NCBI GenBank assembly: GCA_007693855.1 | Contig: RECU01000063.1 | Coordinates: 472-64,471 of the forward strand | Direction: 5' to 3' | Length of the DNA: 64,000 nucleotides | DNA from: Gammaproteobacteria bacterium | GTDB taxonomy: Bacteria > Pseudomonadota > Gammaproteobacteria > Steroidobacterales > PWYM01 | Part shown: piece after piece, positions 28,924-61,135 of the stretch | Numbering within the stretch: position 1 is the first letter of the stretch | Layout of the letters: every line of letters starts with the position of its first letter | The notes under the pieces: model-generated | The model's database searches: none | What the model saw: the letters and a program-made list of their open reading frames with translations, nothing else | What the model was told of the DNA's origin: nothing | Program-made: the position numbers and the translations under genes

Positions 28924-29685
28924 TCATCCGCACTTCGAATCGCCGCAGTTCAGACAGGTCATGCAGCCGTCCATCATGACGACCGCCACCGTGTTGCACT
29001 TCGTGCAGAGTTGCGCACCCTCGGGGAACTCGCTCTTTGCAAAGGCGTCCTGCTGACTGGTGGCCGCCTCGAACTCCTGGCGTTTCTGTTCGATCAGCCG
29101 TTTCTGATGCTCATCCAGGCCCTGCGGGCGCAACAGCCCGATGGTGACCAGGTGCTTCTCGACGATGTGACCCAGCTCGGCGATCAGCGAGGGCATGAAC
29201 TTGCCGCCCGGCTGCCAGTAGCCGCCACGCGGATCGAACACGGCCTTGAGCTCGTCGACGATGAAGGTCACGTCGCCACCCTTGCGGAACACCGCCGACA
29301 TGATGCGCGTCAACGCCACGATCCACTGGTAATGGTCGAGATTCTTCGAGTTGATGAAAATCTCGAAGGGGCGACGCTGCTCGTGCTCCGTACCTTCGTT
29401 GAGAATGATGTCGTTGATGGTCACGTACATGGCATGGTCCGACACCGGCGTCTTGACCTTGTAGGTCGAGCCGATGAGCACTTCCGGACGCTCGAGCTTC
29501 TCGTGCATCCGGATGACCTTGGCGGATTCCTTCTGCGCCTCCGTCTGGGCGGGCGCAGACGCGGCCGGCGCTGGCGTGCCGGCCGCGGCGCTGACCTCGA
29601 CCGCCGGCACCTTGTCTGCCTGCTCGGCCTCCGGCTTCTGCACGCCGTAGTTGATGATTTTCCTGTCGATCTTGATACGCGTCAT
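28924..29685 (-). CDS. nrdJb: class II ribonucleotide reductase, C-terminal subunit NrdJb
   Basis: It corresponds to the C-terminal part of monomeric NrdJ enzymes. It ends in the Cys-rich tail CTKCNTVAVVMMDGCMTCLNCGDSKCG. It lies 35 nt downstream of nrdJa, as in the split Pseudomonas-type enzyme. Confidence 0.85.
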   Translation of the reverse strand: MTRIKIDRKIINYGVQKPEAEQADKVPAVEVSAAAGTPAPAASAPAQTEAQKESAKVIRMHEKLERPEVLIGSTYKVKTPVSDHAMYVTINDIILNEGTEHEQRRPFEIFINSKNLDHYQWIVALTRIMSAVFRKGGDVTFIVDELKAVFDPRGGYWQPGGKFMPSLIAELGHIVEKHLVTIGLLRPQGLDEHQKRLIEQKRQEFEAATSQQDAFAKSEFPEGAQLCTKCNTVAVVMMDGCMTCLNCGDSKCG

Positions 29686-29720
29686 GGGAACGCTTCCCCC
29701 TGCTTGTCGGCCGCGGCCGA

Positions 29721-32700
29721 TCAGAACTTGCCGTAATACCCTTCCTTGAGCGCATCGTAGAGATTCGCGGCGGTATGCACTTCACCGTCGTATTCGATCT
29801 CCTCGTCGCCGCGGACCTTGACTTCGCTGCCGTCTTCCAGAGTGAACACGTAGGTGGTGTTCTTGAGATCGGACTCCTTCACCAGCACGCCCTGGAACGC
29901 CTCGGGATTGAAGCGGAAGGTGGTGCAGCCCTTGAGACCCTGCTCGTAGGCATACATGTAGATGTCCTTGAAATCCTCGTAGTCGTAGTCTGTCGGCACG
30001 TTGGCCGTCTTCGAGATCGAGGAGTCCACCCACAGCTGTGCAGCCGCCTGGATGTCGACATGCTGGGTCGGGGTGACATCGTCGGCCACCGTGAAATACT
30101 CGGGCAGCTGTTCCTCGGGCTTGTCGGAAAACGGCATCGCCTTCGGATTGATCAGGTGCCGGTAGGCCAGCAGCTCGAAGGAGAACACGTCCACCCGCTC
30201 CTTGCTCTTGCGCCCCTCACGGATCACGTTGCGGAAATAGTGGTGCGCGAAGCTCGGCTCGATGCCGTTGGAGGCATTGTTGGCCAGCGACAGCGAGATC
30301 GTACCGGTGGGCGCGATCGAACTGTGGTGCGTGAACCGGGCGCCGACCTCGGCCAGCTGGTCGACCAGCTCGGGCGCGGCGTCCGCCACCCGCTGCATGT
30401 AGCGGCTGTAGCGGGAGTGCAGGATGCGCCCCGGGATACGATCGCCTGGCTGGTAGCCGTCCCGCACCATCTCCGGGCGCTTGCGCAGCATCTCCGGGGT
30501 GACCGTGAACTCCTCGAGCATGATCGGCGCCGGGCCTTTTTCGCGGGCCAGCTCGAGTGCCGTCTCCCAGCCGGCCAGGGCCATTTCGCGCGAGACATTC
30601 TGGGTGAATGCCACCGAGGAGCGCGAGCCATATTTCATGGTCATCATGGTGATGGTCGAACCGAGCCCGAGGAAGCCCATGCCGTGGCGGCGCTTGCGGG
30701 TGATTTCCTCGCGCTGGCGGCCGAGCGGCAGGCCGTTGATCTCCACGACGTTATCGAGCATGCGCGTGAACACCCGGACGACATCGCGATACTGCTCCCA
30801 GTCGAACCGTGCCTTGTCCGTGAACGGATCGATGACGAACTTGGTCAGGTTGACCGAGCCAAGCAGGCAGGAACCGTAAGGCGGCAGCGGCTGTTCGCCG
30901 CAGTTGTGCGCATGCAGGCCGTTGCCATCGAAGCAGTTCACCCCAGGCACCTGGACGTCGTAGACCTCTGCCACGCCGTCGGTGACCAGGGCGCTGACCC
31001 GTGCGATGAAACGTTCCTGGTAGAGCGTCTCGCCGGCCGCGGCCAGCCAGCTCTCGAGCCGCTGCTGGCGCTCGGTGTCGGCGAATCCAATGCGCCGGGC
31101 GAACTCGGCAAGATTGCTGCCACGAAGCATCAGCTGGCCCGCCTGGGCATCGACCGACGCGATCACCCCGAGCCGCTGCAGCATACGCTGCAGCGCGCCC
31201 AACGACGGGCCATCGTGGCCGAGGTTGACATCATTGCCGCCCAGCAGCACGAGCTGCAGCTGGCCGTCGCGCTCCTCGAGACGGCCGCGCACGTCGAACC
31301 ACGCACGCAGGAAGCCGGCATGGAAACGGCTTGAGGTGCGCTCCACAGCCGCCGACACCTCGCCGCTGCCGGCCGCAAGCCCCAGACGACGTGCCAGGCC
31401 GGAGAGCCCGGGCACAGCCAGACGGTATTCACCGCGCTCAGGCACTTCCTGCCAGCCCACAAACCCGGTGCCGCCGGTCAGGGCCTTGGCCGCGTCGGTC
31501 ACCCGACCCATGATGCCGCGCACGCTGCCGGCAATGCCGGCATACGGGGCATTCGCCGCCACGGGGGTGCGCCACAGCGACAGCCAGGCCTGCTCCTGCT
31601 CGACGCGCCCGCGACTGACGAGCATGCCCAACAGATAGCCTTCATCCTCTGAAAGCTCACCGGTCCAGTACGGGTTGTGACGATGATCCTGCAGCAGCAC
31701 CCGGTCGCCCCGGCGCAGCTCACCGGCCTCACACCAGGCGGTCACGGGCTGACCGGCTGCGAAGCCCGTCACGCGCCGCACGCGATGATCCGGCGTCAGC
31801 CGTAAAGTATGCCCCTCGGCAGTCTCCAGCCGCAGGACTTCGCGGATCCCGGTCTGGAAGAAGCCGGCCTCGGTGGTGTCATGCAGCCGCCCGTCGACGC
31901 GCACACTGAAGCGGCGACCGAGCAGCTCACCGACCTGCCGCGGACCCTCGCCCGTATTCACCCAGGTATCAGCCGTGACGCAGGGGTTGGTGGCGCGGAT
32001 GTCCTCGCACCACCAGTTGTTGTTCATCTCGTTGACCCGATCGATCAGCACGAAGCCCGGCTCGGCGAAATCGTAGGTCGAGGCCATGATGACGTCCCAC
32101 ACCCGCCGCGCCGGCACCGTCCGGTACACCTTGCAGGCCACCAGACCGACCTCGTTGCGGGCGTAGCGTCGGTCTTCCCCTGGCCACTCGCGCCAGACGA
32201 AGGTCTCTTCGTCGGCGAGATCCAGCGACTCCTGACGCACCTCTGCCTCGGTCACCGGAAAGGCCAGGCGCCAGGGCTGATCCTCGCGCACCGCCTGCAT
32301 GAATTCGTCGGTGATCAGCAGCGAGAGGTTGAACTGGCGCAGCCGGCCGTCTTCCCGCTTGGCCCGAACGAAGTCCAGGGCATCCGGATGGCCCACGTCG
32401 AACGTGCCCATCTGCGCGCCGCGCCGGCCACCGGCCGAGGACACGGTGAAACACATGCGATCGTAGATATCCATGAACGACAGCGGCCCGGAGGTGTACG
32501 CACCGGCACCCGAAACATAGGCCCCGCGCGGCCGCAGGGTGGAGAACTCGTAGCCGATACCGCAGCCGGCCTTCAGCGTGAGCCCGGCCTCGTGCACCTT
32601 GTTCAGGATGTCATCCATCGAATCCTCGATGGTGCCGGAGACCGTGCAGTTGATCGTGGAGGTGGCCGGCTTGTGCGCCAGCGCCCCGGCGTTGGAGGTG

Positions 32701-32951
32701 ATGCGGCCGGCGGGAATCGCCCCGCGCTGCAGCGCCCAGACAAACCGCTCATACCAGTATTCCCGCACCTCCGGCGCCTCGACATCCGCCAGGGCACGGG
32801 CCACGCGGGCGTAGGTGTCCTGGATGCTGCGGTCTACCGGGGTACCGTCCTTGGTGGCGAGACGGTACTTCTTTTCCCAGATATCGAGCGAGGCTTCCTG
32901 AAACGGGATCTCGGCACTCGGTGGTGTATCCATCTTCACGGCGATCTTCAT
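29721..32951 (-). CDS. nrdJa: adenosylcobalamin-dependent (class II) ribonucleotide reductase NrdJa, interrupted by an in-frame intein
   Basis: Start at MKIAVKMDTPPSAEIPFQE.. (ATG 32951). RNR motifs are present (SNAGA, CGIGYEFS.LRPRG, ATNP|CGEQPLPPYGSC, SIAPTGT). After removing 360 intein residues the mature protein is about 716 aa. Confidence 0.9.
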   Translation of the reverse strand: MKIAVKMDTPPSAEIPFQEASLDIWEKKYRLATKDGTPVDRSIQDTYARVARALADVEAPEVREYWYERFVWALQRGAIPAGRITSNAGALAHKPATSTINCTVSGTIEDSMDDILNKVHEAGLTLKAGCGIGYEFSTLRPRGAYVSGAGAYTSGPLSFMDIYDRMCFTVSSAGGRRGAQMGTFDVGHPDALDFVRAKREDGRLRQFNLSLLITDEFMQAVREDQPWRLAFPVTEAEVRQESLDLADEETFVWREWPGEDRRYARNEVGLVACKVYRTVPARRVWDVIMASTYDFAEPGFVLIDRVNEMNNNWWCEDIRATNPCVTADTWVNTGEGPRQVGELLGRRFSVRVDGRLHDTTEAGFFQTGIREVLRLETAEGHTLRLTPDHRVRRVTGFAAGQPVTAWCEAGELRRGDRVLLQDHRHNPYWTGELSEDEGYLLGMLVSRGRVEQEQAWLSLWRTPVAANAPYAGIAGSVRGIMGRVTDAAKALTGGTGFVGWQEVPERGEYRLAVPGLSGLARRLGLAAGSGEVSAAVERTSSRFHAGFLRAWFDVRGRLEERDGQLQLVLLGGNDVNLGHDGPSLGALQRMLQRLGVIASVDAQAGQLMLRGSNLAEFARRIGFADTERQQRLESWLAAAGETLYQERFIARVSALVTDGVAEVYDVQVPGVNCFDGNGLHAHNCGEQPLPPYGSCLLGSVNLTKFVIDPFTDKARFDWEQYRDVVRVFTRMLDNVVEINGLPLGRQREEITRKRRHGMGFLGLGSTITMMTMKYGSRSSVAFTQNVSREMALAGWETALELAREKGPAPIMLEEFTVTPEMLRKRPEMVRDGYQPGDRIPGRILHSRYSRYMQRVADAAPELVDQLAEVGARFTHHSSIAPTGTISLSLANNASNGIEPSFAHHYFRNVIREGRKSKERVDVFSFELLAYRHLINPKAMPFSDKPEEQLPEYFTVADDVTPTQHVDIQAAAQLWVDSSISKTANVPTDYDYEDFKDIYMYAYEQGLKGCTTFRFNPEAFQGVLVKESDLKNTTYVFTLEDGSEVKVRGDEEIEYDGEVHTAANLYDALKEGYYGKF
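30903..31982 (-). mobile_element. intein (360 aa; Hint domain plus degenerate LAGLIDADG-type endonuclease insert) in NrdJa
   Basis: Cys1 is verified (TGC, plus-strand gca at 31980-31982; block A CVTADTWV). Block B is LTPDH and block F is EVYDVQVPGVNCFDGNG. Block G is LHAHN, with the Asn codon at 30903-30905, followed by +1 Cys. The flanks rejoin to the universal ATNP-CGEQPLPPYGSC. Confidence 0.85.
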
Positions 32952-33090
32952 GATTCGACACTGGCTCCCCTGGCTGGCCCGGGCCGGACGCTGACAAGCT
33001 GTCCGGCGGCGGAACGGGCGTCTGTCCCGCTGTGCCCGCGCGACCCTGCAGCCACTGCGAGCGGGATGATTCTTTGTGGTGACCCCTGGA

Positions 33091-33106
33091 ACACAAGATA
33101 TTGTGC
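33091..33106. promoter_or_regulatory. NrdR-box-like palindrome 1 (ACACAAGATATTGTGC)
   Basis: It fits the published NrdR consensus acaCwAtATaTwGtgt. It lies 12 nt downstream of the -10 hexamer of the nrdJ promoter, around the predicted transcription start. Confidence 0.6.
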
Positions 33107-33117
33107 CCTGTGCCTGA

Positions 33118-33146
33118 ACTGTAGGCCCCAGTCCGGGGAGTGTCAA
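33118..33146 (-). promoter_or_regulatory. sigma70 promoter of nrdJa-nrdJb (TTGACA-N17-TACAGT) with AT-rich upstream tract
   Basis: The minus strand reads agccTTGACActccccggactggggccTACAGTtc. About 60 nt upstream of the -35 are A/T-rich (UP-element-like) in an otherwise GC-rich region. Confidence 0.55.
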
Positions 33147-33269
33147 GGCTTTTGTAAAACCAGAAAATAAAGGGTTTACTCTAACAAAAACAATTGATTA
33201 CTTCGACAATAGGCGCGTTTTTCCGGGGCATTCCGGATTATCGGCGGGGCCGGTCCGCCCTGCGACCAG

Positions 33270-52242: not shown

Positions 52243-53559
52243 GTGGCCATGGCCGTCAATCTTCAATCCACCGTCGCAGCGCCGGCCTCGGTCAGCGCTC
52301 CCGATCGCCTGCGCGTCCTCATCGCTGCCGGTGACCAGACCCTGCGCGCCACCCTGTCACGCTACATCATGCGTGAATGGCCGGCGGCCACCATCACCGC
52401 CTGCAACGATTCGGGGCCGATGCTCGCGCGCAAACTCCATGCCCTGCACGGCTACGACCTGATCCTCACCGGCTGCGATTTCGCCTCCAACAGCCGGCTG
52501 TGGGATGACGGTGGGCTGCGCTGGCTGGAACAGATCCGCGATGGCGGGCTGCACCCGCCGATCGTGATCGTGGCCGACTGCGGCAGCGAGTACACGGCCG
52601 TGCAGACCATGGCGGCGGGGGCTGCCGACTACCTGCCACAGGAACTGCTCAGCCGCGAACTGCTGATCGGCAGGATCCAGCGGCTGCTGGGCGACCCGAA
52701 CTCGGGCGCCACCGAGCTCACCCGCAAGGCCAGGCGGACTGCCGCCCACATGGGTGTGCGCCCGTACGGCTACGAACTGCTGGACTGCCTGGATTACAGT
52801 GGACGCCGCGCCGTGTTCCTGGCCCGCAGCCGCGAGCTCGAGCGCCAGGTCGTGCTGAAGACGCTCTGCGCCGAGGAAGGCGCGCTTACCCTGGATCCGG
52901 AATACCAGCGCTTCGCCCGCGAGTTCAATCTGATCTCGTATTTCAATCATCCCGCGGTCGCCGGGATCTTCGAGTTCAAGGCGAATCGGCACCACTGCTA
53001 CATCGCCATGGAGTATTTCCCGCGCGGCGACCTGCGCCAGCACATGCGTCGGGGGCTCGGTGCGGAGGCAGGCCTGCAGCTTTTCGGCGCGCTGCTCGAC
53101 GCGCTGCAGCTGGTCCATGAGGCCGGCATCGTGCACCGTGACATCAAGCCCTCTAACGTGATGCTGCGGGATAAGGATCGCGTGGCGCTCATCGACTTCG
53201 GCCTGGCTCGACAGGTCAGCGACTTCGTCAACCTCACCATCGCGGGCGAAGTCCACGGCACCCCCTATTACATGAGCCCGGAACAGGCCGAGGGCAACGA
53301 GACCGACGAGCGCAGCGATCTCTACAGCTGCGGCATCCTGCTGTTCGAGCTGCTCACCGGCGAGAAGCCGTTCCGCGCCGCCAACGTGCCGGCGATTCTC
53401 GATCAGCATGTGCACGCACCGGTCCCGGAGTTGCCAGCCCCGTGGCGGCCACTGCAGCCGGTGCTCGCGCGGCTGCTGGAAAAAGCCCCCAAGGCGCGCT
53501 ACCAGGACGTGGCCAGCGTGCGCAGTGACCTGCGCAAGGCGCTCGCCGAACTGCGCTGA
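52243..53559 (+). CDS. receiver-like (degenerate REC) domain fused to a Hanks-type Ser/Thr protein kinase
   Basis: Residues ~23-148 have a CheY-like beta/alpha pattern (LRVLIAAGD.., YDLILTGCDF, PPIVIVADCG, AGAADYLPQ). Residues ~175-430 carry VVLK, HRDIKPSNVML, DFGLAR and GTPYYMSPEQ. Start is GTG 52243 or ATG 52249. Confidence 0.8.
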   Translation: MAMAVNLQSTVAAPASVSAPDRLRVLIAAGDQTLRATLSRYIMREWPAATITACNDSGPMLARKLHALHGYDLILTGCDFASNSRLWDDGGLRWLEQIRDGGLHPPIVIVADCGSEYTAVQTMAAGAADYLPQELLSRELLIGRIQRLLGDPNSGATELTRKARRTAAHMGVRPYGYELLDCLDYSGRRAVFLARSRELERQVVLKTLCAEEGALTLDPEYQRFAREFNLISYFNHPAVAGIFEFKANRHHCYIAMEYFPRGDLRQHMRRGLGAEAGLQLFGALLDALQLVHEAGIVHRDIKPSNVMLRDKDRVALIDFGLARQVSDFVNLTIAGEVHGTPYYMSPEQAEGNETDERSDLYSCGILLFELLTGEKPFRAANVPAILDQHVHAPVPELPAPWRPLQPVLARLLEKAPKARYQDVASVRSDLRKALAELR

Positions 53560-53562
53560 CCC

Positions 53563-54573
53563 TCAGCGCTCGATGATGGGCAGCAAGGCGCCGTCGGCGC
53601 CCCGGCGCGGCAGCACGAACTCGTCCAGCAGGGCTTGCCGGACCTCTTCGTTTTCGGCCTGCACGAGCCGCCGGACAGCCCAGGGATCGAGGTGCGCGGC
53701 GAAGCCGGCGATGAAGTCGTACATGAAATCCCGCAGCACGGTCTCCGGACGGAAACCGATCCAGGTCGTCACCCGCGGGAACAGGCCGGCGGCGCTGAGC
53801 GCCACCAGTTCCTTGTCGGCCGGGTCGACCGCCATCGCCGCCACCACCCCCACGCCCATGCCAAGGCGCACGTAAGTCTTGATGACGTCGGCATCGCGCG
53901 CAGTGAACACCACCTCCGGCGTCAGCCCCTGACGCTCGAAGGCGCTGCGAAACGACGACTCGCCACGCTCGGAGAAGACGTAGGTCACCAGCGGATACTC
54001 GGCGAGATCCTGCAGCGTCGCGGGCCGCTCGAGCCGGGTCAGCGGATGGTCCGCCGGCACCAGGATCACCCGGTCCCAGCGATAGCAGGGCAGGCGCAGG
54101 AGGTTGGGGAACAGTTCATCGCCACCGGTGGCGATCACGAACTCCACGCGCTTGGCCTCGACCATGTCGGCGAGCTGCTCCGAGGTCCCCTGGTGCAGGC
54201 TGAGCGAGACGTCGGGGTAGTCCGCCCGGAACTTGGCGATGGCCCGCGGCAGCACGTAGCGGGCCTGGGTGTGCGTGGTGCCGATGGACAGCAGGCCGCG
54301 GTTGTCCTTGTTGATGTTCTGGGCGATGCGCCGGATGTTCTCGGCCTCGCGCAGGATGACCGCGGCGCGCTCGATCACCTCCCGGCCCTCCACCGTGATC
54401 TCGGTCAGGCTCTTGCCGCGGCGGATGAACAGCTTCAGGCCCAGCTCGTCCTCGAGCTGGCGGATCTGCTTGCTGACCGCCGGCTGGGAGGTGTGCAGCC
54501 GCTCGGCGGCGGCCGTGATGTTCAGGCCGTTCTCGGCGACCGCCAGGACATAGCGCAGCTGCTGCAGTTTCAT
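53563..54573 (-). CDS. cysB: CysB-family LysR-type transcriptional regulator
   Basis: MKLQQLRYVLAVAENGLNITAAAERLHTSQPAVSKQIRQLEDELG.. closely parallels the CysB/Cbl N-terminus. About 336 aa. Confidence 0.75.
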   Translation of the reverse strand: MKLQQLRYVLAVAENGLNITAAAERLHTSQPAVSKQIRQLEDELGLKLFIRRGKSLTEITVEGREVIERAAVILREAENIRRIAQNINKDNRGLLSIGTTHTQARYVLPRAIAKFRADYPDVSLSLHQGTSEQLADMVEAKRVEFVIATGGDELFPNLLRLPCYRWDRVILVPADHPLTRLERPATLQDLAEYPLVTYVFSERGESSFRSAFERQGLTPEVVFTARDADVIKTYVRLGMGVGVVAAMAVDPADKELVALSAAGLFPRVTTWIGFRPETVLRDFMYDFIAGFAAHLDPWAVRRLVQAENEEVRQALLDEFVLPRRGADGALLPIIER

Positions 54574-54654
54574 ACGCGAATTATCCGCCGTTGCGCGGCC
54601 GGGCGCCACGCGGCCGTGCCTGCTGGACCAATACGCGGCCCGAGCACACCTGGC

Positions 54655-55797
54655 TCAGCGCTGCAGGATGGCCACTGCGCTGACCCCGGGCGCGCCATAG
54701 ACATGTGAGTAGCCGACCCGCGGGCGCCCCGGCACCTGCCGCGGCCCCGCCGCGCCGCGCAGCTGCAGGACGTTCTCATAGACCTGGCGCAGGCCCGAGG
54801 CGCCGATCGGCTCGCCGTTGGCCAGGCAGCCGCCGTCGGTATTCACCGGCAGGCGACCCCCGATCTCGGTCTCGCCCTCGCGCAGCATGCGCGCCTGCTC
54901 GCCATCGGCACAGAAGCCATTCTCGGCCATGTGCATGATTTCGGCGCCGGACTCGGTGTCCTGCAGCTGGGCGATGTCGATGTCCTCCGGGCCCAGGCCC
55001 GCCGCCTCGAAGGCTGCACGCGAGGCGGTCACCGACGGGCTTGGTGCCTGTTCGAGCGCCTGACAGGGGCTGAACACCTCGAAGGAGCCGAAGTGACGGG
55101 TGCGCATGCTCACGGCCTTGACGTAAATCGGCGTACGCCCCAGCCGGCGCACCAGATCACCCCGGCAGAGTACCAGCGCCACGGCGCCCTCACTCGGCGA
55201 GCAGAACATGTACTTGCGCAGCGGGTGGCTGACCATCGGGGAGCTGGCGATCTCCTCATAGGACACCGGCCGACGGCGCCAGGCGTAAGGGTTGTGCTCG
55301 GCGTTGCGGAAGGCCTTCTCGGCCACCCGGATCAGCGCATCCTCGGTGAGACCATGATCGTGCATGTACTTCTGGATCTTCATGGCGAAGAACTGGGTGG
55401 TCAGCGCGAGTCCCACCTCGCCGTACCACTGGCCCAGGCCCCAGTCGGCCGGATTGACCTCGAAAGCCCCCCGCGGATGCTTGTCGAAGCCCACCGCCAT
55501 GGCGATGTCGTGCTCGCCGGAGCGGATCGCGGCTACCGCCGCCGCCAGTGCGCTGCCCCCGGTGGCGCAGCCGTTGGCCACGTTGATGAACGACAGCCCC
55601 GTCAGCCCCAGACGATTGACCATGGTGTCGGCATTGCCGGCGCTGGTGCTGCCGCCGAAGGCGCACTGGATATCGCGCCACTGCAGGCTGGCGTCCGCCA
55701 GCGCCTCGCGGGCGGCGTGGACGCCCTGCTCCAGCCCGGACACCCCCTCGGTCCGTCCAAAGGGGTGGATGCCGATGCCGATGATTGCCACGTCCAT
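54655..55797 (-). CDS. thiolase-superfamily protein (SCP-x/lipid-transfer-type, non-acetoacetyl-CoA thiolase)
   Basis: MDVAIIGIGIHPFGR.. with thiolase N- and C-terminal domain patterns. It pairs with the upstream DUF35 gene, 1 nt apart. Confidence 0.8.
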   Translation of the reverse strand: MDVAIIGIGIHPFGRTEGVSGLEQGVHAAREALADASLQWRDIQCAFGGSTSAGNADTMVNRLGLTGLSFINVANGCATGGSALAAAVAAIRSGEHDIAMAVGFDKHPRGAFEVNPADWGLGQWYGEVGLALTTQFFAMKIQKYMHDHGLTEDALIRVAEKAFRNAEHNPYAWRRRPVSYEEIASSPMVSHPLRKYMFCSPSEGAVALVLCRGDLVRRLGRTPIYVKAVSMRTRHFGSFEVFSPCQALEQAPSPSVTASRAAFEAAGLGPEDIDIAQLQDTESGAEIMHMAENGFCADGEQARMLREGETEIGGRLPVNTDGGCLANGEPIGASGLRQVYENVLQLRGAAGPRQVPGRPRVGYSHVYGAPGVSAVAILQR

Positions 55798-55798
55798 G

Positions 55799-56245
55799 TC
55801 AGCCCTCCTCGCCATCTGCAGCCAGCGGACGGAAGGCGAAGGTCACCACTTCCCGGCCTGCCGCGTCGGTGGTCAGCGGCACAAACGTCAGTTCCATCTC
55901 CATGCCGATCGCCAGCTGTGCGGGATCAGCCACCGTCAGCGGGGCCTCCACGCGGGTCTCGCCGGGCAGCTCCACGTAGCCCACACCGTAGGGGCGGAAG
56001 CGGTCGGGCGTGGCCGGGCCGGCATACGGCAGCTTGGGCGGAAACGACTGGATGGTCCAGGTCCACAGCCGCCCGCGCGTGCCCAGCCTGCGCTGCGCGA
56101 CCCGGTCGCTGCAGCAGGCGGGGCAACTGGTCTGCGCCGGGAAGACAATGGTGCCGCAGTCGTGGCATTCGCTGCCCAGCAGCCTCGGCGCCTCGTCGGG
56201 CCAGGTGAACAGGGCCGGGTCGACCGGAACGCGCTCGGCGGACAT
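55799..56245 (-). CDS. Zn-ribbon/OB-fold protein (DUF35 family)
   Basis: It has a rubredoxin-like knuckle (CHDCGTIVFPAQTSCPAC) followed by an OB-fold segment. Start at MSAERVPV (ATG 56245). Confidence 0.8.
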   Translation of the reverse strand: MSAERVPVDPALFTWPDEAPRLLGSECHDCGTIVFPAQTSCPACCSDRVAQRRLGTRGRLWTWTIQSFPPKLPYAGPATPDRFRPYGVGYVELPGETRVEAPLTVADPAQLAIGMEMELTFVPLTTDAAGREVVTFAFRPLAADGEEG

Positions 56246-56388: not shown

Positions 56389-56829
56389 TTACCCCCCGGC
56401 AGCACCCATGGGAGGCTCCCCCAGCAGCAGCAGGACGGCCACGTTCCATATCACGTGCAGGCCGATTGCCGGCAGCACACTGTCGTGACGATCGCGGAAC
56501 AGGCCGAACACCAGCGACGGCGCAAAGACGAGGGTGGCATGCACCGCACCGCGAAGCGGCAGATGGGCGAGCGAGAACAGCACGCTGGTCAGCAGATTGG
56601 CCAGCGTCAGCGGGCCGGCGGCCCGGGCGGCCGTGCGCCGGAGCAGCCAGGGCTGCAGCAGGCCGCGAAAGACCAGCTCCTCAAGCACCGGGTAGACCAG
56701 ACCGAACAGCAGCAGGGCCGTCCATGCAGGCCCCGCCCCGGCGCCGAACACCAGCCGGGCGCCGAACACCACCGCAATGCCCAGCACGCAGGCGGTCCAC
56801 CACCAGGGATCGCGCCACCAGGCCGTCAC
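56389..56829 (-). CDS. CPBP-family (CAAX-type) intramembrane glutamic endopeptidase, minimal 146-aa form
   Basis: All three family motifs are present: EELVFRG (EExxxR), FSLAH (FxxxH) and HVIWN (HxxxN), embedded in about four hydrophobic helices. GTG start at 56829. Confidence 0.8.
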   Translation of the reverse strand: MTAWWRDPWWWTACVLGIAVVFGARLVFGAGAGPAWTALLLFGLVYPVLEELVFRGLLQPWLLRRTAARAAGPLTLANLLTSVLFSLAHLPLRGAVHATLVFAPSLVFGLFRDRHDSVLPAIGLHVIWNVAVLLLLGEPPMGAAGG

Positions 56830-56836
56830 GACGCGC

Positions 56837-56854
56837 CTGTCACCGTTCTGTCAC
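56837..56854 (+). promoter_or_regulatory. Pho box (CTGTCAC-CGTT-CTGTCAC)
   Basis: Two identical 7-mers at 11-bp periodicity compare with the E. coli consensus CTGTCATAWAWCTGTCAY. TACGGT lies 10 nt downstream as a possible -10. The site is about 165 nt upstream of the OprO/P-type porin start. Confidence 0.55.
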
Positions 56855-57017
56855 ACGGCATTGTTACGGTCTGCACGTTGGCAAATGACAACACCGCATC
56901 CTTTCTGCAACAGCGGGCCGCGCCAGTATACGGCGGCGGCTTCAAATCGTTCCGGTTGTGCCGCTCGCGACTGGCGCAGCCCTTAGAAAAACCCACCGTA
57001 GAAGCAAGGGGTAACCC

Positions 57018-58463
57018 ATGAAAACATCGCGAACACTGGGGCTGGCGGTCGCCGCCCTGATGGGCAGCATGGCGGTCAGCGCGCCCGCGCTGGCCTCACC
57101 GGAGACCGACCGGCTGATCGAGATCCTGGTCGCCAAGGGCATCCTCACCCAGCAGGAGGCCGAGGCCATTCGTGCCGAGGTGGCCGAGCCACAGCCCTCG
57201 GCGCTGGAGACCCCGGTGCGCAGTGACGTGCAGTACGATCCGGTCGAGCCCTTCACCGATGACGAGCCGGCGATCCGCGTCCGACGCCTGGCGATCGACT
57301 CAGCCGACGGCCGCGACCGCTTCAGCATCCGTGGCCGTCTCCAGTACGACGTGGAACGGGTCGATTTCGGCAGCGACATCCAGAACGTCGCGCGCCAGGG
57401 CAACCCCTTCCCGAGCTACGGCAGCCGCTTCCGGCGCCTGCGCCTCGGTGCGCTGGGCATCATGCACAACGACTGGGAATGGCAGCTCGAAGTCGACTTC
57501 TCGGATGAGGAAGTCGGCCTGGCCAACGCCTACATCGCCTACCTGATGCCCCATGGGCGCCTGGCTTTCGGCCACTTCAAGGAGCCCTTCGGCCTGGAGT
57601 ACGCGACGAGCTCGCGGCGCATCACCTTCATGGAGCGCTCCGCCGCCTCGGATGCCTACAAGGTCAATCGCGAGCCCGGCATCATGTACGAGACGATTCA
57701 GCCGAACTGGTATGGCGCCTTCGGCGTTTTCGGTGGCGGCACTGCCTTTAACCGTGACGTCGAAGAGGGCTGGGCGCTGTCCGGGCGCCTGACCGGCGCG
57801 CCGTATCTGGACGGCAACAACTACGTGCACATCGGCGCGGCGGTCAACCAGCGGCGTAATGCCGTCAACAAGGCCACCAACCTCTATGAGTCGGTGCGGT
57901 TGCGCACCCGCGAGGGCGCCCGCGCCATCGACGCGCGTCTGATCGGCCGTGACGATCTCGAAGGCGTCAGCAAGTTCACCCGCTACGGCCTGGAACTCGC
58001 CGCCGGTCGCGGCCCATGGTCGATGCAGGGCGAGTACATCTGGGTCGACATCGATCTTGACCGCGACGCGCTGGTCCGCGCGCTCGGCGCCAACGCCACA
58101 TCCGAAAGCTCCCTCACCCAGAAAGGCTGGTACGTCCAGGGGAGTTACTTCCTGACCGGTGAGCACAGCAACTATCGCGCCTTCTCGGGCGATTTCGGCC
58201 GGGTCACCCCGAACCGGAATTTCTCGCTGCGTGAGGGGGGCTGGGGTGCCTGGGAGGCGGCGGTGCGCTATTCGATGGCGGACTCACTGGAGCACACCCG
58301 GCCAGGTCGCGGGCAGAAGCTCGAGCACTGGACGGCAGGCCTCAACTGGTACCTGAACCCGGAAGTCATCTTCAAGTTCAACGTCATGTATCTCGAGGGC
58401 GAGCGCGACGTGTTCAAGGATGACGGCTGGGTGTATGGCGCCCGCTTCCAATACGAATTCTGA
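57018..58463 (+). CDS. OprO/OprP-family (phosphate-selective-type) porin
   Basis: It has a signal peptide. Family hallmarks are present: FRRLRLGALG..WEWQLEVDF..LANAYIAYL..FGHFKEPFGLEY..ITFMERS.. The C-terminus is ..GLNWYLNP..ARFQYEF. Confidence 0.85.
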   Translation: MKTSRTLGLAVAALMGSMAVSAPALASPETDRLIEILVAKGILTQQEAEAIRAEVAEPQPSALETPVRSDVQYDPVEPFTDDEPAIRVRRLAIDSADGRDRFSIRGRLQYDVERVDFGSDIQNVARQGNPFPSYGSRFRRLRLGALGIMHNDWEWQLEVDFSDEEVGLANAYIAYLMPHGRLAFGHFKEPFGLEYATSSRRITFMERSAASDAYKVNREPGIMYETIQPNWYGAFGVFGGGTAFNRDVEEGWALSGRLTGAPYLDGNNYVHIGAAVNQRRNAVNKATNLYESVRLRTREGARAIDARLIGRDDLEGVSKFTRYGLELAAGRGPWSMQGEYIWVDIDLDRDALVRALGANATSESSLTQKGWYVQGSYFLTGEHSNYRAFSGDFGRVTPNRNFSLREGGWGAWEAAVRYSMADSLEHTRPGRGQKLEHWTAGLNWYLNPEVIFKFNVMYLEGERDVFKDDGWVYGARFQYEF

Positions 58464-58484
58464 TTCAGGCGAGGACTCTTCATC

Positions 58485-60116
58485 ATGAAACGACTCACAC
58501 CATTGGCCCTGGCCATGGCGCTCGCCTACTCCGCCAGCGCCTCGGCCGCATTACTCAACGGCAATTTCGCGGAATACGATCCCCCTCAGGACGGCTCGAC
58601 TGCAGGTTACGACCAGAGCGAAGGCCCACCCGGCTGGTACGTCACTGCCACGGTGAGCGGCGGCTCGGTGGTCTATGACGCCGCAGGCGCTGCGACCAGC
58701 GGTGGTTACTGGCTGTACGAGGCACCCATTACCAGGGGCTTCGGCGACAGCAAGTTCGAGCAGTGCGTCGCGGTGACCGACGCCGAGGCGCTGGAGATCA
58801 GCTACTCGGTGTTTGCCGACACGCCCACCGTGGACGCCACCGCGCTGGGCATCCGCGTCAATCCCAACTTCTACGCGAACCTCGAGGACTGCCTGGAGGC
58901 CCAGGCACTCGACGCCGGCGGCAACCGCCTGAGCGATGGCGGCGCACGCCCGAACGACAATGTCGACTTCACGCTGGGCGCCGACGACGGCAACCAGTGG
59001 ATCGTGCGCACCCCTGATCAGGAACCCAATCTGCGTTACACCACAGCAGACATCCCGGACGGCACGCGCTTTATGAACCTCAGCATGCGCGCACGCGACA
59101 GGCCGGATGGTGGCCGGACCAATGTCAGCCTGCGACTGGACGACATCCGGGTCGTGCAGGGCGGCGTGGACCGCGTGATCAACGGCAGTTTCACGCATGC
59201 TCCGCTGTTCGACGGCGCCCCGCTGGTCACCGGCGGCGGCTGGGTCGTCAACCGCGGCGGCGACGCGGACCTGAAGGCTGCGGTCGGCCCGACAACTTTC
59301 GCGCTCTCCGGCGACAACGTGTTCTACTTCGAAACGCTGACCGGCAACTTCGGCCTGAACGGTCTCGACCAGTGTTTCTCCCTGGACGGGGCGGACATCC
59401 GGCCCTCACTGTTCGCGCTCACGCAGCGCCCGGACCCGGAGCTGCAGATCCGCGTCAACGTGGATTTCTTCACCGACGACAGCTGCACGACGGAAGCCGC
59501 GAGCGGACTGCGTATCCGGGAAGACTTCGTGCTTGATGGCGAGGCCGGCGAGTGGCTGCCACTGGTCGCTGGCACCAGCCGCGGACCTGGCGAGTACGCG
59601 GACGCCACCCATGCGCTGCTCAGCATTCGGGCACGTGACCGGACCAACGCTGCAGGCGATGGCCCCGGCGAGTTTACACGGGCCGTGGCTATCGATGATG
59701 TCAGCGTTGCTGCCGGCGTGGCCACGCCAACGTTCAGCCCGCCGCCCGGGTCCTTCGTCGATTCGGTGACGGTGACGCTGTCCTCGTCGACCGATGGTGC
59801 GGTGATTTACTACACCCTCGACGGCTCGGACCCGGACGACACCTCTGCCAACGTACCGAGCGGTGGCACGGTGGAGATCACCTCCAGCTCGACCCTGACG
59901 GCGCGGGCGTTCGCCGATGGCGAGTTCTCGGGTCCGCGTGCCGGTGACTACACCATCACCGCCCCGCCCCCGCCGCCGCCCCCGCCGCCGCGTGAGCTGA
60001 GCACCGGCTGCAGCGTGTCGGGCCAGCCTTCACCGCTGGATCCGACACTCTGGGTGCTCGCGGGCCTGGCCGGCATGAGCATACTCTGGAGACGGCGCCG
60101 GACACGACAGCGCTAG
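58485..60116 (+). CDS. exported protein: two CBM4/9-like beta-sandwich modules, a chitobiase/hexosaminidase-C-like domain, a Pro9 linker and a C-terminal sorting signal
   Basis: Signal peptide (..SASA|ALL). Duplicated modules at aa 23-225 and 231-409. PTFSPPPGSF..AVIYYTLDGSDP matches the CHB_HEX_C-type domain. The tail is STGCSVSGQPSPLDPT-LWVLAGLAGMSILW-RRRRTRQR. It lies 21 nt after the porin gene. Confidence 0.8.
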   Translation: MKRLTPLALAMALAYSASASAALLNGNFAEYDPPQDGSTAGYDQSEGPPGWYVTATVSGGSVVYDAAGAATSGGYWLYEAPITRGFGDSKFEQCVAVTDAEALEISYSVFADTPTVDATALGIRVNPNFYANLEDCLEAQALDAGGNRLSDGGARPNDNVDFTLGADDGNQWIVRTPDQEPNLRYTTADIPDGTRFMNLSMRARDRPDGGRTNVSLRLDDIRVVQGGVDRVINGSFTHAPLFDGAPLVTGGGWVVNRGGDADLKAAVGPTTFALSGDNVFYFETLTGNFGLNGLDQCFSLDGADIRPSLFALTQRPDPELQIRVNVDFFTDDSCTTEAASGLRIREDFVLDGEAGEWLPLVAGTSRGPGEYADATHALLSIRARDRTNAAGDGPGEFTRAVAIDDVSVAAGVATPTFSPPPGSFVDSVTVTLSSSTDGAVIYYTLDGSDPDDTSANVPSGGTVEITSSSTLTARAFADGEFSGPRAGDYTITAPPPPPPPPPRELSTGCSVSGQPSPLDPTLWVLAGLAGMSILWRRRRTRQR

Positions 60117-60149: not shown

Positions 60150-60181
60150 GCCCACCGGCGCGATGCGTCGGTGGGCTTTTC
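60150..60181 (+). terminator. Rho-independent terminator after the porin/cargo operon
   Basis: gcccaccg-N11-cggtgggc followed by TTTT, 33 nt after the stop. Confidence 0.6.
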
Positions 60182-60184
60182 TGC

Positions 60185-61135
60185 TCAGCGTTCGGTCGTC
60201 GCCGCATCCCTGACCTTGCGCTTGCGCTCCACGGCGCGCCTGCCCGGACCGCCCTTCATCGCTTCGCGACAATGGTCGTAGAACGCATCGGCGAGCCTCG
60301 TTTCCCCGACTCCGGCGGGCGTCATGAACACGTACTCCTGGAGAATCTTCGGACGAAACGGCACGAGCACAATGCCCGTATCCACGTAGCGCTGCGCCAG
60401 CAGATCGCTGACCAGGGCAATGCCCACCCCGGCCCCGGAAAACGCACACGCGGCGCCGACATGGTGAGTCTCCAGGCGAATCGATGGACGCACGCGCGCC
60501 TCACGAAACGCCTCCTCGATGCGCATGCGCGTCTCGCCGCCACGCCCGATCAGGATCAGCGGCTCACCGTCGAGATCCCCCGCACCCAGAGACCGCTTGT
60601 CCGCCAGCCGATGCCCCTCGGGTACCGCGCACACGGTCGTGGCCACCTGCAGGGGCCGCACGGTGATGCCGGGATGCTCGACAGGCAGTTTGCCGAAACC
60701 GCAATCCACACTGCGCGTGGAGACCAGGTTGATGATCGAGGGCCGGCTGCGTGAGTCCAGCGACAGCTGCACCTTGGGTCGCGACTCCATGAAACCTGCG
60801 ATGATCCCGACCAGCGGCCCCTCGGCAAAACTCGGCACGGCAACGACCCGCAGGTGGCCTGCATCGAGCTGCTGCATGTTCGCGGCCAGACTTGCGATCC
60901 GGTCCAGGCCCACGAAGGCAAGGTCCACCTCCTCGAACAGCAGCATCGCCTGAGGTGTTGGTACCAGCCTGCCCTTCTCACGGTGGAAGATGGCGAAACC
61001 CAGCTCCTGCTCGAGCTGTGCCAGCAGCCGACTGACCGCAGGCTGACTCAAGCCCAGTCGCTTGGCCGCAGCGGTCACCGAACCCATGCGGATGATCTCG
61101 CGAAAGCCCTCGAGACTGCGCAGGCTGAGCTTCAC
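60185..61135 (-). CDS. LysR family transcriptional regulator
   Basis: N-terminal HTH (..GSVTAAAKRLGLSQPAVSRLLAQLEQELGF..F.R) with a LysR substrate-binding domain. It is divergent from the TonB-dependent receptor. Confidence 0.9.
   Translation of the reverse strand: MKLSLRSLEGFREIIRMGSVTAAAKRLGLSQPAVSRLLAQLEQELGFAIFHREKGRLVPTPQAMLLFEEVDLAFVGLDRIASLAANMQQLDAGHLRVVAVPSFAEGPLVGIIAGFMESRPKVQLSLDSRSRPSIINLVSTRSVDCGFGKLPVEHPGITVRPLQVATTVCAVPEGHRLADKRSLGAGDLDGEPLILIGRGGETRMRIEEAFREARVRPSIRLETHHVGAACAFSGAGVGIALVSDLLAQRYVDTGIVLVPFRPKILQEYVFMTPAGVGETRLADAFYDHCREAMKGGPGRRAVERKRKVRDAATTER

Follow-up and report, generated by a model that had tools for sequence, protein, structure and literature searches.

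Positions 56389-60116 of the 64,000-nucleotide stretch of contig RECU01000063.1 analyzed here (the window) encode a small CPBP-type intramembrane protease, a porin and a protein with a tripartite C-terminal tail, and this locus is, to judge from its sequence, very probably a JDVT-CTERM/MrtJ sorting module whose enzyme is dedicated to a single cargo. It was observed directly that both parts belong to these families, that the catalytic motifs are intact, that the tag is conserved and that tag and enzyme vary together across genomes. The class itself is published and included in annotation models, and curated models name both parts; new here are a cargo family with tandem CBM-like domains, a predicted Pho control and the fixed pairing of this cargo family with an OprO/P-type porin, a pairing that persists after tag loss and where no MrtJ was found. 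The three genes are as follows.

56389-56829, minus strand: mrtJ, CPBP protease of 146 amino acids (aa), GTG start
57018-58463, plus strand: OprO/OprP-family porin gene, 481 aa, with signal peptide
58485-60116, plus strand: JDVT-CTERM cargo gene, 543 aa

Protease and cargo tail match curated models of one sorting class

The protease scored 94.4 bits on NF033192 (CPBP_JDVT_MrtJ, an NCBIfam equivalog with a cutoff of 75) and 70.2 bits on the Pfam Rce1-like model. Its five best NCBIfam matches were all myxosortase-family models, among which MrtJ alone exceeded its cutoff; scores on other models of the family were far lower than their cutoffs, with MrtP (60.2 bits, cutoff 250), MrtC (43.8, cutoff 195), MrtX (26.3, cutoff 180) and MrtZ (17.8, cutoff 325). 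No Abi-type model in NCBIfam matched the protease, and other CPBP families stayed far under their cutoffs. The motifs that an earlier note on this DNA had read as intact were present where it placed them, namely EELVFRG (residues 50-56), FSLAH (85-89) and HVIWN (125-129), and with them the general motifs EExxxR (50-55), FxxxH (85-89) and HxxxN (125-129); E50, E51, R55, F85, H89, H125 and N129 were invariant in an alignment of nine homologues. MrtJ homologues were searched for with a five-sequence alignment, and all 10 of those tested from related loci passed NF033192 at 85.5-111 bits. A PDB sequence search with MrtJ returned no match at E up to 1 and thus gave no direct structural anchor to MmRce1. 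The 146-aa protein is predicted to be a minimal CPBP glutamic intramembrane endopeptidase and the sorting enzyme of the JDVT-CTERM tag.

The cargo C-terminus reads ...A-P9-RELSTGCSVSGQPSPLDPTLWVLAGLAGMSILWRRRRTRQR, with RELSTG directly after the nine prolines, followed by Cys509 and D519-P520.

59964-59990, plus strand: Pro9 linker or stalk (residues 494-502), read from the sequence
59997-60113, plus strand: JDVT-CTERM sorting domain (residues 505-543), LSTG-C509-SVSGQPSPL-D519P520-TLWVLAGLAGMSILW-RRRRTRQR

Residues 508-539 scored 32.8 bits on NF033191 (JDVT-CTERM, cutoff 27) and the isolated tail 38.9 bits, and the tail also passed TIGR03901 (MYXO-CTERM, cutoff 20) at the lower score of 24.1 bits. 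In the AlphaFold2 (AF2) model of the cargo the terminal helix spans residues 520-542 and is followed by the Arg cluster RRRRTRQR; residues 502-519, directly after the Pro9 run, have a predicted local distance difference test (pLDDT) score below 50 and are disordered around Cys509, the sole Cys of the tail. The tripartite tail described in the earlier note, with its Cys behind the Pro9 run, can be read directly from the sequence. A hidden Markov model (HMM) of the tail, built from 16 orthologues and run on all six-frame open reading frames (ORFs) of the window, matched the cargo (81.7 bits) and nothing else, the next match having E>3, which agrees with the claim that no other window protein carries such a tail. 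Because protease and tail both lie above curated family cutoffs, the resemblance is not due to chance. Weak profile matches to NTTRR-F1 (14.3 bits against 70), CARD and PRIMA1 were set aside as noise. No match of the tail to TIGR03501 (GlyGly-CTERM) or TIGR02595 (PEP-CTERM) was obtained at E up to 10, and a rhombosortase or exosortase system, having neither a tag match nor such an enzyme in Pfam scans of the window, was rejected.

JDVT stands for Janthinobacterium, Duganella, Vibrio and Thioalkalivibrio, and the tag so named contains a single Cys, followed some nine residues on by a near-invariant DP, and then a Leu-rich helix and an Arg cluster; a genome typically encodes one cargo, and the cargo adjoins the protease in 16/17 cases with an MrtJ-type protease within 4 kb (Haft, bioRxiv 10.1101/2023.06.07.544157). 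The earlier note had guessed at this class and at single-cargo sorting by a CPBP enzyme, and the HMM check that it proposed bears the guess out, protease and tail both exceeding their curated cutoffs. Its likening of LDPT to an (I/L)DVT signature was spurious, JDVT being an abbreviation of four genera; the wrong motif led to the right class, since the real DP is part of LDPT. The present locus shares with the class a short CPBP protease whose core has ~98 conserved positions and a tag made up of one Cys, DP, Leu-rich helix and Arg cluster. The class, in which the roughly one cargo of a genome is encoded beside its enzyme, is known from Gammaproteobacteria, including haloalkaliphiles. Every defining feature of JDVT-CTERM/MrtJ that lends itself to this kind of comparison is present. 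The locus differs in its CBM-like/Ig-like cargo and obligatory porin, which are not among Haft's neighborhoods (DUF4266, DUF3570, TlpA), in the placement of the porin gene between enzyme and cargo, which are not strictly adjacent, in a DP at +10 from the Cys instead of +9 (it is at +9 in L002 and P0006) and in a Pho-box-like site.

The tag and MrtJ vary together among cargo homologues

The cargo has 24 full-length homologues, which fall into three groups.

Clade A: window cargo and P0001-P0015; at least 50% identity to the window cargo; JDVT tag, 16/16 matching NF033191
Clade B: P0016-P0020 (Marinimicrobium, Alcanivorax); 35-37% identity; tail ...PLNRS(T/A)GS-helix-RRR, no Cys, no DP
Clade C: P0021-P0024; 34-38% identity over ~75% of the query; no tail

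Neither Cys nor DP varies in any of the 16 clade-A orthologues or in unrelated cargos that adjoin MrtJ. An exact-sequence look-up of the window cargo gave no record; the nearest relative, L015, has a cargo 98% identical to that of the window. Loss of the tail from orthologues, which the earlier note held would speak against a sorting signal, was not seen, the tag being kept in each of the 16 close orthologues. The MrtJ-porin-cargo triad is kept in L001, L009, L010/L011 and L052, with wholly different flanks in L009, and the pair L017/L052 probably represents a single triad that a contig break within the porin gene has divided. The order in L028 is porin, cargo, MrtJ, with MrtJ downstream on the same strand, and five metagenome-assembled genomes (MAGs) have MrtJ on a contig other than that of the tailed cargo and porin (L020/L055, L023/L057, L024/L061, L026/L058 and L016/L102). 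The non-adjacent MrtJ homologues from L055, L057, L058, L061 and L021 (same contig as L102) all pass NF033192. An unrelated JDVT-tagged protein, an M4 metalloprotease, stands beside MrtJ in L002, without a porin.

An MrtJ that passes the curated model was found in 10 of the 12 genomes with a tailed cargo as against 0 of the 6 with a Cys-less or tail-less one (Fisher p = 0.0015), a count made on the best 80 of 118 MrtJ matches and across related genomes. In four genomes, clade-B loci retain porin then cargo and have no MrtJ within 6 kb, and clade-B genomes are missing from the MrtJ matches listed (the best 80 of 118); clade-C loci have neither porin nor MrtJ. Since tag loss in the distant homologues comes without detectable MrtJ, these results support a link between tag and MrtJ, and the co-occurrence check suggested in the earlier note thus came out in its favor.

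Several further observations concern the tails and loci of the wider family. The clade-B tails (L012 8001-9578, L013 7813-9360, L025, L030) consist of PLNRS(T/A)GS-x-G, a helix and RRR, and the lead-in 'PLNRSTG' is common to them and to some JDVT tags (P0011, P0014, P0015). No curated sorting model matched these Cys-less tails above cutoff (GlyGly-CTERM 12.2 bits against 15.5, MYXO-CTERM 15.6 against 20), so that a GlyGly-CTERM identity was dropped, and no processing enzyme was apparent near the cargo in clade-B loci. Four Pseudomonadales/Gammaproteobacteria MAGs (L020, L023, L024, L026) encode much longer relatives with a JDVT tag (ORFs of 1168-1715 codons from stop to stop), each of which follows a porin gene directly, and the separate MrtJ contig of each MAG is without an adjoining cargo. 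MAG T3Sed10_137 has two JDVT-tagged cargo paralogues, one between two Porin_O_P genes and without MrtJ (L016, 4415-9276), the other 3.2 kb from MrtJ and without a porin (L021); because of these two paralogues the rule of one cargo per genome is not strict. In L019 (4726-5973) an 87-codon MrtJ fragment on the minus strand overlaps a shortened porin ORF in its 5' part, perhaps as the result of a deletion spanning the divergent promoter or of faulty assembly. A rhomboid-family gene in L009 (12444-13184), ~3 kb downstream of the JDVT-tagged cargo and separated from it by the genes of a Na/Pi symporter and a CYTH protein, probably has no part in sorting.

The cargo is a tandem CBM-like protein with a variable tip

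The body of the cargo was delineated from the AF2 model (mean pLDDT 86.5), from Pfam and by eye; all parts lie on the plus strand.

Residues 1-21: signal peptide, N-terminus MKRLTPLALAMALAYSASASA/AL, Sec signal with AxA site, assigned by eye
Residues ~22-228: CBM4/22-like jelly-roll 1, AF2 model
Residues ~229-412: CBM4/22-like jelly-roll 2, AF2 model
Residues ~413-492: Ig-like CHB_HEX_C domain, Pfam CHB_HEX_C_1, 48.4 bits

The best PDB match in Foldseek was the tandem CBM22-1-CBM22-2 of Xyn10C (4xup, E 4e-9), and the single jelly-rolls gave TM-scores of 0.65-0.69 against CBM4-2, normalized to target length. On this model the cargo is a non-catalytic protein with two CBM4/22-like domains and an Ig-like domain. 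The statement in the earlier note that it has no recognizable catalytic domain accordingly stands for the model, but the protein is not featureless, having these two CBM4/22-like domains and the CHB_HEX_C domain. Each jelly-roll contains an invariant Cys pair in the homologue alignment (C94/C136 and C297/C334), which would fit an extracytoplasmic protein, as well as an S-x-R-A-R-D-R strand that does not vary; the large number of invariant Arg residues may suit an anionic ligand, a point that we infer from the alignment only.

Conservation rises along the cargo toward its C-terminus. Compared with P0009/P0010, CBM-like domain 1 is 42-48% identical, domain 2 ~52%, the Ig-like domain 76-82% and the tail up to 97%, and P0009 in particular has a near-identical tail yet only 42% identity in CBM-like domain 1. 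Between the window (57018-60116) and L010 (6536-9647), identity is 96% for the porin, 78% for MrtJ and ~56% for the cargo. This gradient fits C-terminal anchoring with an exposed tip that evolves fast or recombines, and the unequal divergence suggests either diversifying selection or cassette-like recombination at such a tip.

Distant homologues of the body carry other tails. One, in L033 (5854-9681), passes IPTL-CTERM (21.8 bits, cutoff 20.5) and has a choice-of-anchor U domain, and those of Wenzhouxiangella MAGs (L037, L039, L042, L043) end in an unclassified 'VPVNHP-helix-RR' tail. Because distant body homologues bear other tags, the cargo body acts like one of Haft's choice-of-anchor modules.

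The porin belongs with the cargo body

The window porin matched Pfam Porin_O_P (PF07396) at 183.5 bits over residues 102-481, matched no NCBIfam model, and aligned from residue 91 with OprO (PDB 4rjw, E 7e-18) and OprP (2o4v, E 2e-13). It has a conserved N-terminal extension of ~75 aa that is missing from OprO and OprP; the stretch 57096-57290 (residues ~27-91) holds a helix-like motif, ETDRLIEILVAKGILTQQEAEAIR, kept in clades A and B. The porin gene is always directly upstream of the cargo gene in these two clades. Among MrtJ loci it occurs in only 9/89, all nine of which have this cargo family. Because tag-less clade-B cargos retain the porin and only 9/89 MrtJ loci have one, the porin goes with the cargo body and not with the sorting machinery, and MrtJ goes with the tag. 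The porin, which the earlier note had called an unexpected partner, is therefore better described as a conserved partner of this cargo family that stands outside the sorting system. Literature searches returned no paper on this porin-cargo pair.

Operon structure, a Pho-box-like site and phosphorus genes

The protease gene diverges from porin and cargo, which are separated by 21 nt, as the earlier note had described; its observations proved right in every detail that could be checked.

56830-57017, no strand: intergenic/promoter stretch of 188 bp shared by the divergent mrtJ and porin genes
56837-56854, plus strand: Pho-box-like site CTGTCAC-CGTT-CTGTCAC, 14/14 against the consensus CTGTCAYNNNNCTGTCAY
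60150-60182, plus strand: intrinsic-terminator-like hairpin, 12-14 bp GC-rich stem, then UUUUCU

The hairpin lies between the cargo stop codon and a convergent LysR gene (60185-61135); its RNA fold has a free energy of -42.1 kcal/mol (z -3.76), and 0/200 shuffled sequences were as stable. A consensus promoter/terminator scan of the locus gave no match; it missed the hairpin because its rules on loop and T-run excluded it. The 188-bp divergent region, the 21-nt gap and the hairpin with its U-tract 3' of the cargo make it reasonable to treat porin and cargo as a two-gene operon.

The distance from the Pho-box-like site is 8 bp to the start codon of mrtJ and 181 bp to the porin ATG downstream. 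The consensus used, CTGTCATNNNNCTGTCAT, comprises two CTGTCAT-type 7-mers in an 11-bp phase, with either C or T permitted at their final positions; it is quoted in bioRxiv 10.1101/2021.04.14.439775. Even with one mismatch allowed, the window contains no other match, where 0.16 would be expected. L001, L010/L011 and L052 have the site in the corresponding position, and a third repeat in phase is present in L010 and L052. Upstream of their porin genes, L009, L023 and L026 have sites with a score of 12/14; a 12/14 score occurred in 1.1% of background windows, for a binomial P of 2.6e-7 for 5/14 or, conservatively, 6.6e-5. Equivalent promoters of clades B and C have 12/14 sites as well. The sole one of locus L012 is 59 bp before an ATP-binding cassette (ABC) operon that precedes porin and cargo, and locus L014 has only two, one preceding the cargo homologue and the other 68 bp upstream of the adjoining ABC transporter. 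These ABC transporters near the cargo family in L012 and L014 are PhnS-like. A Na/Pi symporter adjoins the cargo in L009, and L014 also encodes a metallophosphoesterase and a PPK2 scoring above its cutoff (378 against 302); phosphorus-uptake genes thus neighbor the cargo family in three clades. The convergent LysR gene was considered as a phosphonate link and discarded as too weak, a phosphonate-associated LysR subfamily being only its second-best match (110 bits against 341).

The matches point, with somewhat better than even confidence, to PhoB regulation of the porin-cargo operon, and a role of the pair in phosphorus or anion acquisition is predicted more tentatively, at somewhat below even confidence. 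We regard this phosphorus layer as a well-supported hypothesis, not as a result. The mrtJ-porin intergenic region further shares with L001 and L010/L052 the blocks GGCATTGTTACGGT, GTTGGCAAAT and CCAGTATACGG and an AAGGGG ribosome-binding site; the three blocks (56855-57017) lie in the long porin 5' leader, downstream of the Pho-box-like site, and candidate roles for them are an mrtJ promoter, a -10 element and leader structure. The cargo family is concentrated in MAGs (L001, L015-L026, L037-L048) that, by isolate names such as CSSed, T3Sed10 and LW138R, apparently come from soda-lake and other alkaline or saline samples. The putative phosphate-starvation module thus shows a habitat bias, and waters of this type are often phosphate-rich.

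Surroundings of the locus

By Pfam scans of its ~50 ORFs, the window is an ordinary chromosomal stretch with dnaG-rpoD, tsaD, ribonucleotide reductase, kdtA and degP, and it also encodes two TonB-dependent receptors and an RND efflux system. These scans showed no sortase, exosortase, rhombosortase or rhomboid, which agrees with the earlier note as to the first three, and no bacteriocin gene lies near mrtJ in the window. There is one tailed ORF in the 64 kb, 1.6 kb from mrtJ. The neighbors at the mrtJ locus are the porin, the cargo and a ChsH2-like/thiolase pair. A conserved block at 52243-56242 adjoins mrtJ in the window lineage, L001 and L010 and encodes a receiver-domain Ser/Thr kinase fusion, a CysB-like LysR regulator, a thiolase-like protein and a ChsH2-type OB-fold protein; because it is missing in L009, it is not part of the module. 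Elsewhere in the window, the Ribonuc_red_lgC match of the ribonucleotide reductase large subunit (29721-33197, minus strand) covers residues 184-1093. Against the 523 positions of the profile, this span implies an insertion of ~390 aa, possibly an intein; a separate TSCPD-domain ORF (28924-29781, minus strand) follows it.

Comparison with known sorting and uptake systems

The closest experimentally studied relative is MrtX of Myxococcus xanthus, for which tag cleavage, Cys dependence and surface sorting have been demonstrated (Guo, Haft and Wall, mBio 2025, PMC11980579). The working model for MrtX comprises Sec export, Cys lipidation, cleavage distal to the Cys and surface display, with Lgt suggested as the Cys-modifying enzyme in the MYXO-CTERM case (PMC11980579). 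MrtX and its MYXO-CTERM tag resemble the present pair in a homologous CPBP core and a Cys-containing tripartite tag; MrtX differs as a housekeeping enzyme with an extra N-terminal domain, ~35 cargos and a dependence on type II secretion. It has been validated experimentally, whereas MrtJ is known from computation alone. The remark in the earlier note that CPBP-linked sorting is little characterized accordingly holds for MrtJ, on which no experiment was found in the literature, but no longer for MrtX, whose cleavage activity was reported in 2025 (PMC11980579). Rce1, the eukaryotic/archaeal type II CAAX prenyl protease, belongs to the same glutamic intramembrane superfamily and shares its motifs and cleavage after a lipid-modified Cys, but its substrate is a cytosolic CAAX tetrapeptide, whereas the Cys here would lie on the periplasmic side, before a transmembrane helix. 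GlyGly-CTERM/rhombosortase, PEP-CTERM/exosortase and IPTL-CTERM follow the same tripartite tag logic with other enzyme families and with tags that have neither Cys nor DP, and the model and Pfam searches of the window turned up none of these enzymes or tags.

On the porin side, OprP and OprO, the Pho-regulated phosphate and polyphosphate porins of Pseudomonas aeruginosa, share with the window porin the Porin_O_P domain, PDB homology and an upstream Pho-box-like site. They differ from it in that the window porin has the ~75-aa extension and is co-transcribed, on the operon reading, with a tagged surface protein; identity to OprO is low by eye, the alignment being too distant for a reliable residue-by-residue reading. 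In SusD/SusC and TbpB/TbpA a lipid-tethered binding protein is encoded beside an outer-membrane channel. The likeness, a binding lipoprotein plus a barrel, is a functional analogy only: those systems use N-terminal lipidation and TonB-dependent barrels, where the present one would combine a C-terminal anchor with a diffusion porin.

A model for the locus and its alternatives

In the mechanism that we propose, the cargo would be exported by Sec through its N-terminal signal peptide and stay anchored in the inner membrane through the C-terminal helix, the Arg cluster lying in the cytoplasm. Cys509 would be modified, probably lipidated, by some further enzyme, and MrtJ would then cut just after Cys509 and remove the helix and Arg tail. 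The mature cargo would be tethered through a lipid at its C-terminus and moved to the outer membrane or cell surface. The porin-cargo operon would constitute a conserved functional pair, independent of the sorting enzyme, for uptake of a substrate that contains phosphorus or is otherwise anionic, with the tandem CBM-like protein acting as a tethered binder beside an OprO/P-type channel. A bolder version, speculative and in our estimate somewhat unlikely, is an undescribed phosphate-starvation uptake device, in which the MrtJ-processed cargo at the surface captures an anionic phosphorus compound and hands it to the OprO/P-type channel. Candidate ligands in this scheme are polyphosphate, a phosphonate or a phosphorylated polymer, and it would have different lineages fit the binding module with JDVT-CTERM, a Cys-less tail, IPTL-CTERM or no anchor.

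Four other explanations were weighed against the sorting module. The tail could be a plain unprocessed inner-membrane anchor, with the CPBP protein acting on some other or general substrate; the cargo body is compatible with this, because clade-B homologues use a Cys-less helix and Arg tail without an adjoining protease, and many MrtJ-like loci have no tailed ORF nearby. We consider this explanation quite unlikely in view of the strict Cys and DP in 16/16 orthologues and in unrelated MrtJ-adjoining cargos, the co-occurrence of matches to the two curated models, the coincidence of Cys/DP loss with no detectable MrtJ and the cleavage by the homologue MrtX of its own tag (PMC11980579). A strict MYXO-CTERM/myxosortase system, that is, a housekeeping sortase with many cargos exported by type II secretion, is suggested by the tail score above the TIGR03901 cutoff and by the Joint Genome Institute (JGI) label 'MYXO-CTERM domain-containing protein' on two orthologues. 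It is very improbable: the tail scores higher as JDVT-CTERM and has a single Cys and a DP, the protease fails the MrtX, MrtC, MrtP and MrtZ cutoffs widely and is without their N-terminal domains, there is one cargo in 64 kb and it lies beside its enzyme, and the lineage is gammaproteobacterial.

Could the porin itself take part in sorting or export, serving as a conduit through the outer membrane or as an insertion partner needed to place the cargo, instead of working with the mature protein? Its invariable position directly upstream of the cargo in clades A and B and its conserved, probably periplasmic N-terminal extension, missing from OprO/P, would favor such a role, to which we assign very little likelihood: it is present in 9/89 MrtJ loci, all with one cargo family, other JDVT cargos are without it, and it persists where tag and MrtJ are lost. 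OprO/P-type barrels (2o4v, 4rjw) are moreover narrow anion channels, too narrow for a folded protein of ~50 kDa. The CPBP superfamily, to which the Pfam Rce1-like match assigns the protease, also includes Abi proteins, and the earlier note had named clustering with bacteriocin-immunity proteins as a result that would undo its proposal. All top family matches proved to be myxosortase-family models, with no Abi-type model and MrtJ alone above cutoff, no bacteriocin gene is nearby and the synteny with the tagged cargo is conserved; Abi-type bacteriocin self-immunity is thus effectively refuted.

The JDVT-CTERM/MrtJ reading, with its phosphorus layer, is in turn tempered by several points. The cleavage site, the Cys modification and the final location are extrapolated from MrtX and Rce1, and literature searches returned no experimental report on MrtJ or on any JDVT-CTERM protein, and no paper on MrtJ apart from Haft's work and the MrtX study. 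Type II secretion genes were not found in the Pfam scans of the window. By the tail HMM, 66/89 MrtJ-like loci are without a tailed ORF within 5 kb, so that adjacency of MrtJ and cargo is not universal, and the clade-B negative for MrtJ comes from a pattern-limited search and the best 80 of 118 matches. For the Pho box, scores in roughly half the porin promoters are no higher than background, the consensus applied to these uncultured bacteria is that of distant model organisms, E. coli and Pseudomonas, and the PhnS-like binding proteins of L012 and L014 are under equivalog cutoffs.

Implications

For genome annotation the locus is ordinary. JDVT-CTERM/MrtJ has so far been defined by computation only, and the present locus is a compact, three-gene, single-cargo example with a confident structural model and a predicted inducing condition, phosphate limitation. 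Relatives without the tag and, so far as checked, without the enzyme provide natural controls. If true, the uptake device would represent a SusCD/TbpAB-like arrangement built on a diffusion porin and a C-terminal anchor. The locus is a convenient test bed both for MrtJ-type sorting and for the cooperation of a C-terminally tethered binder with an anion porin.

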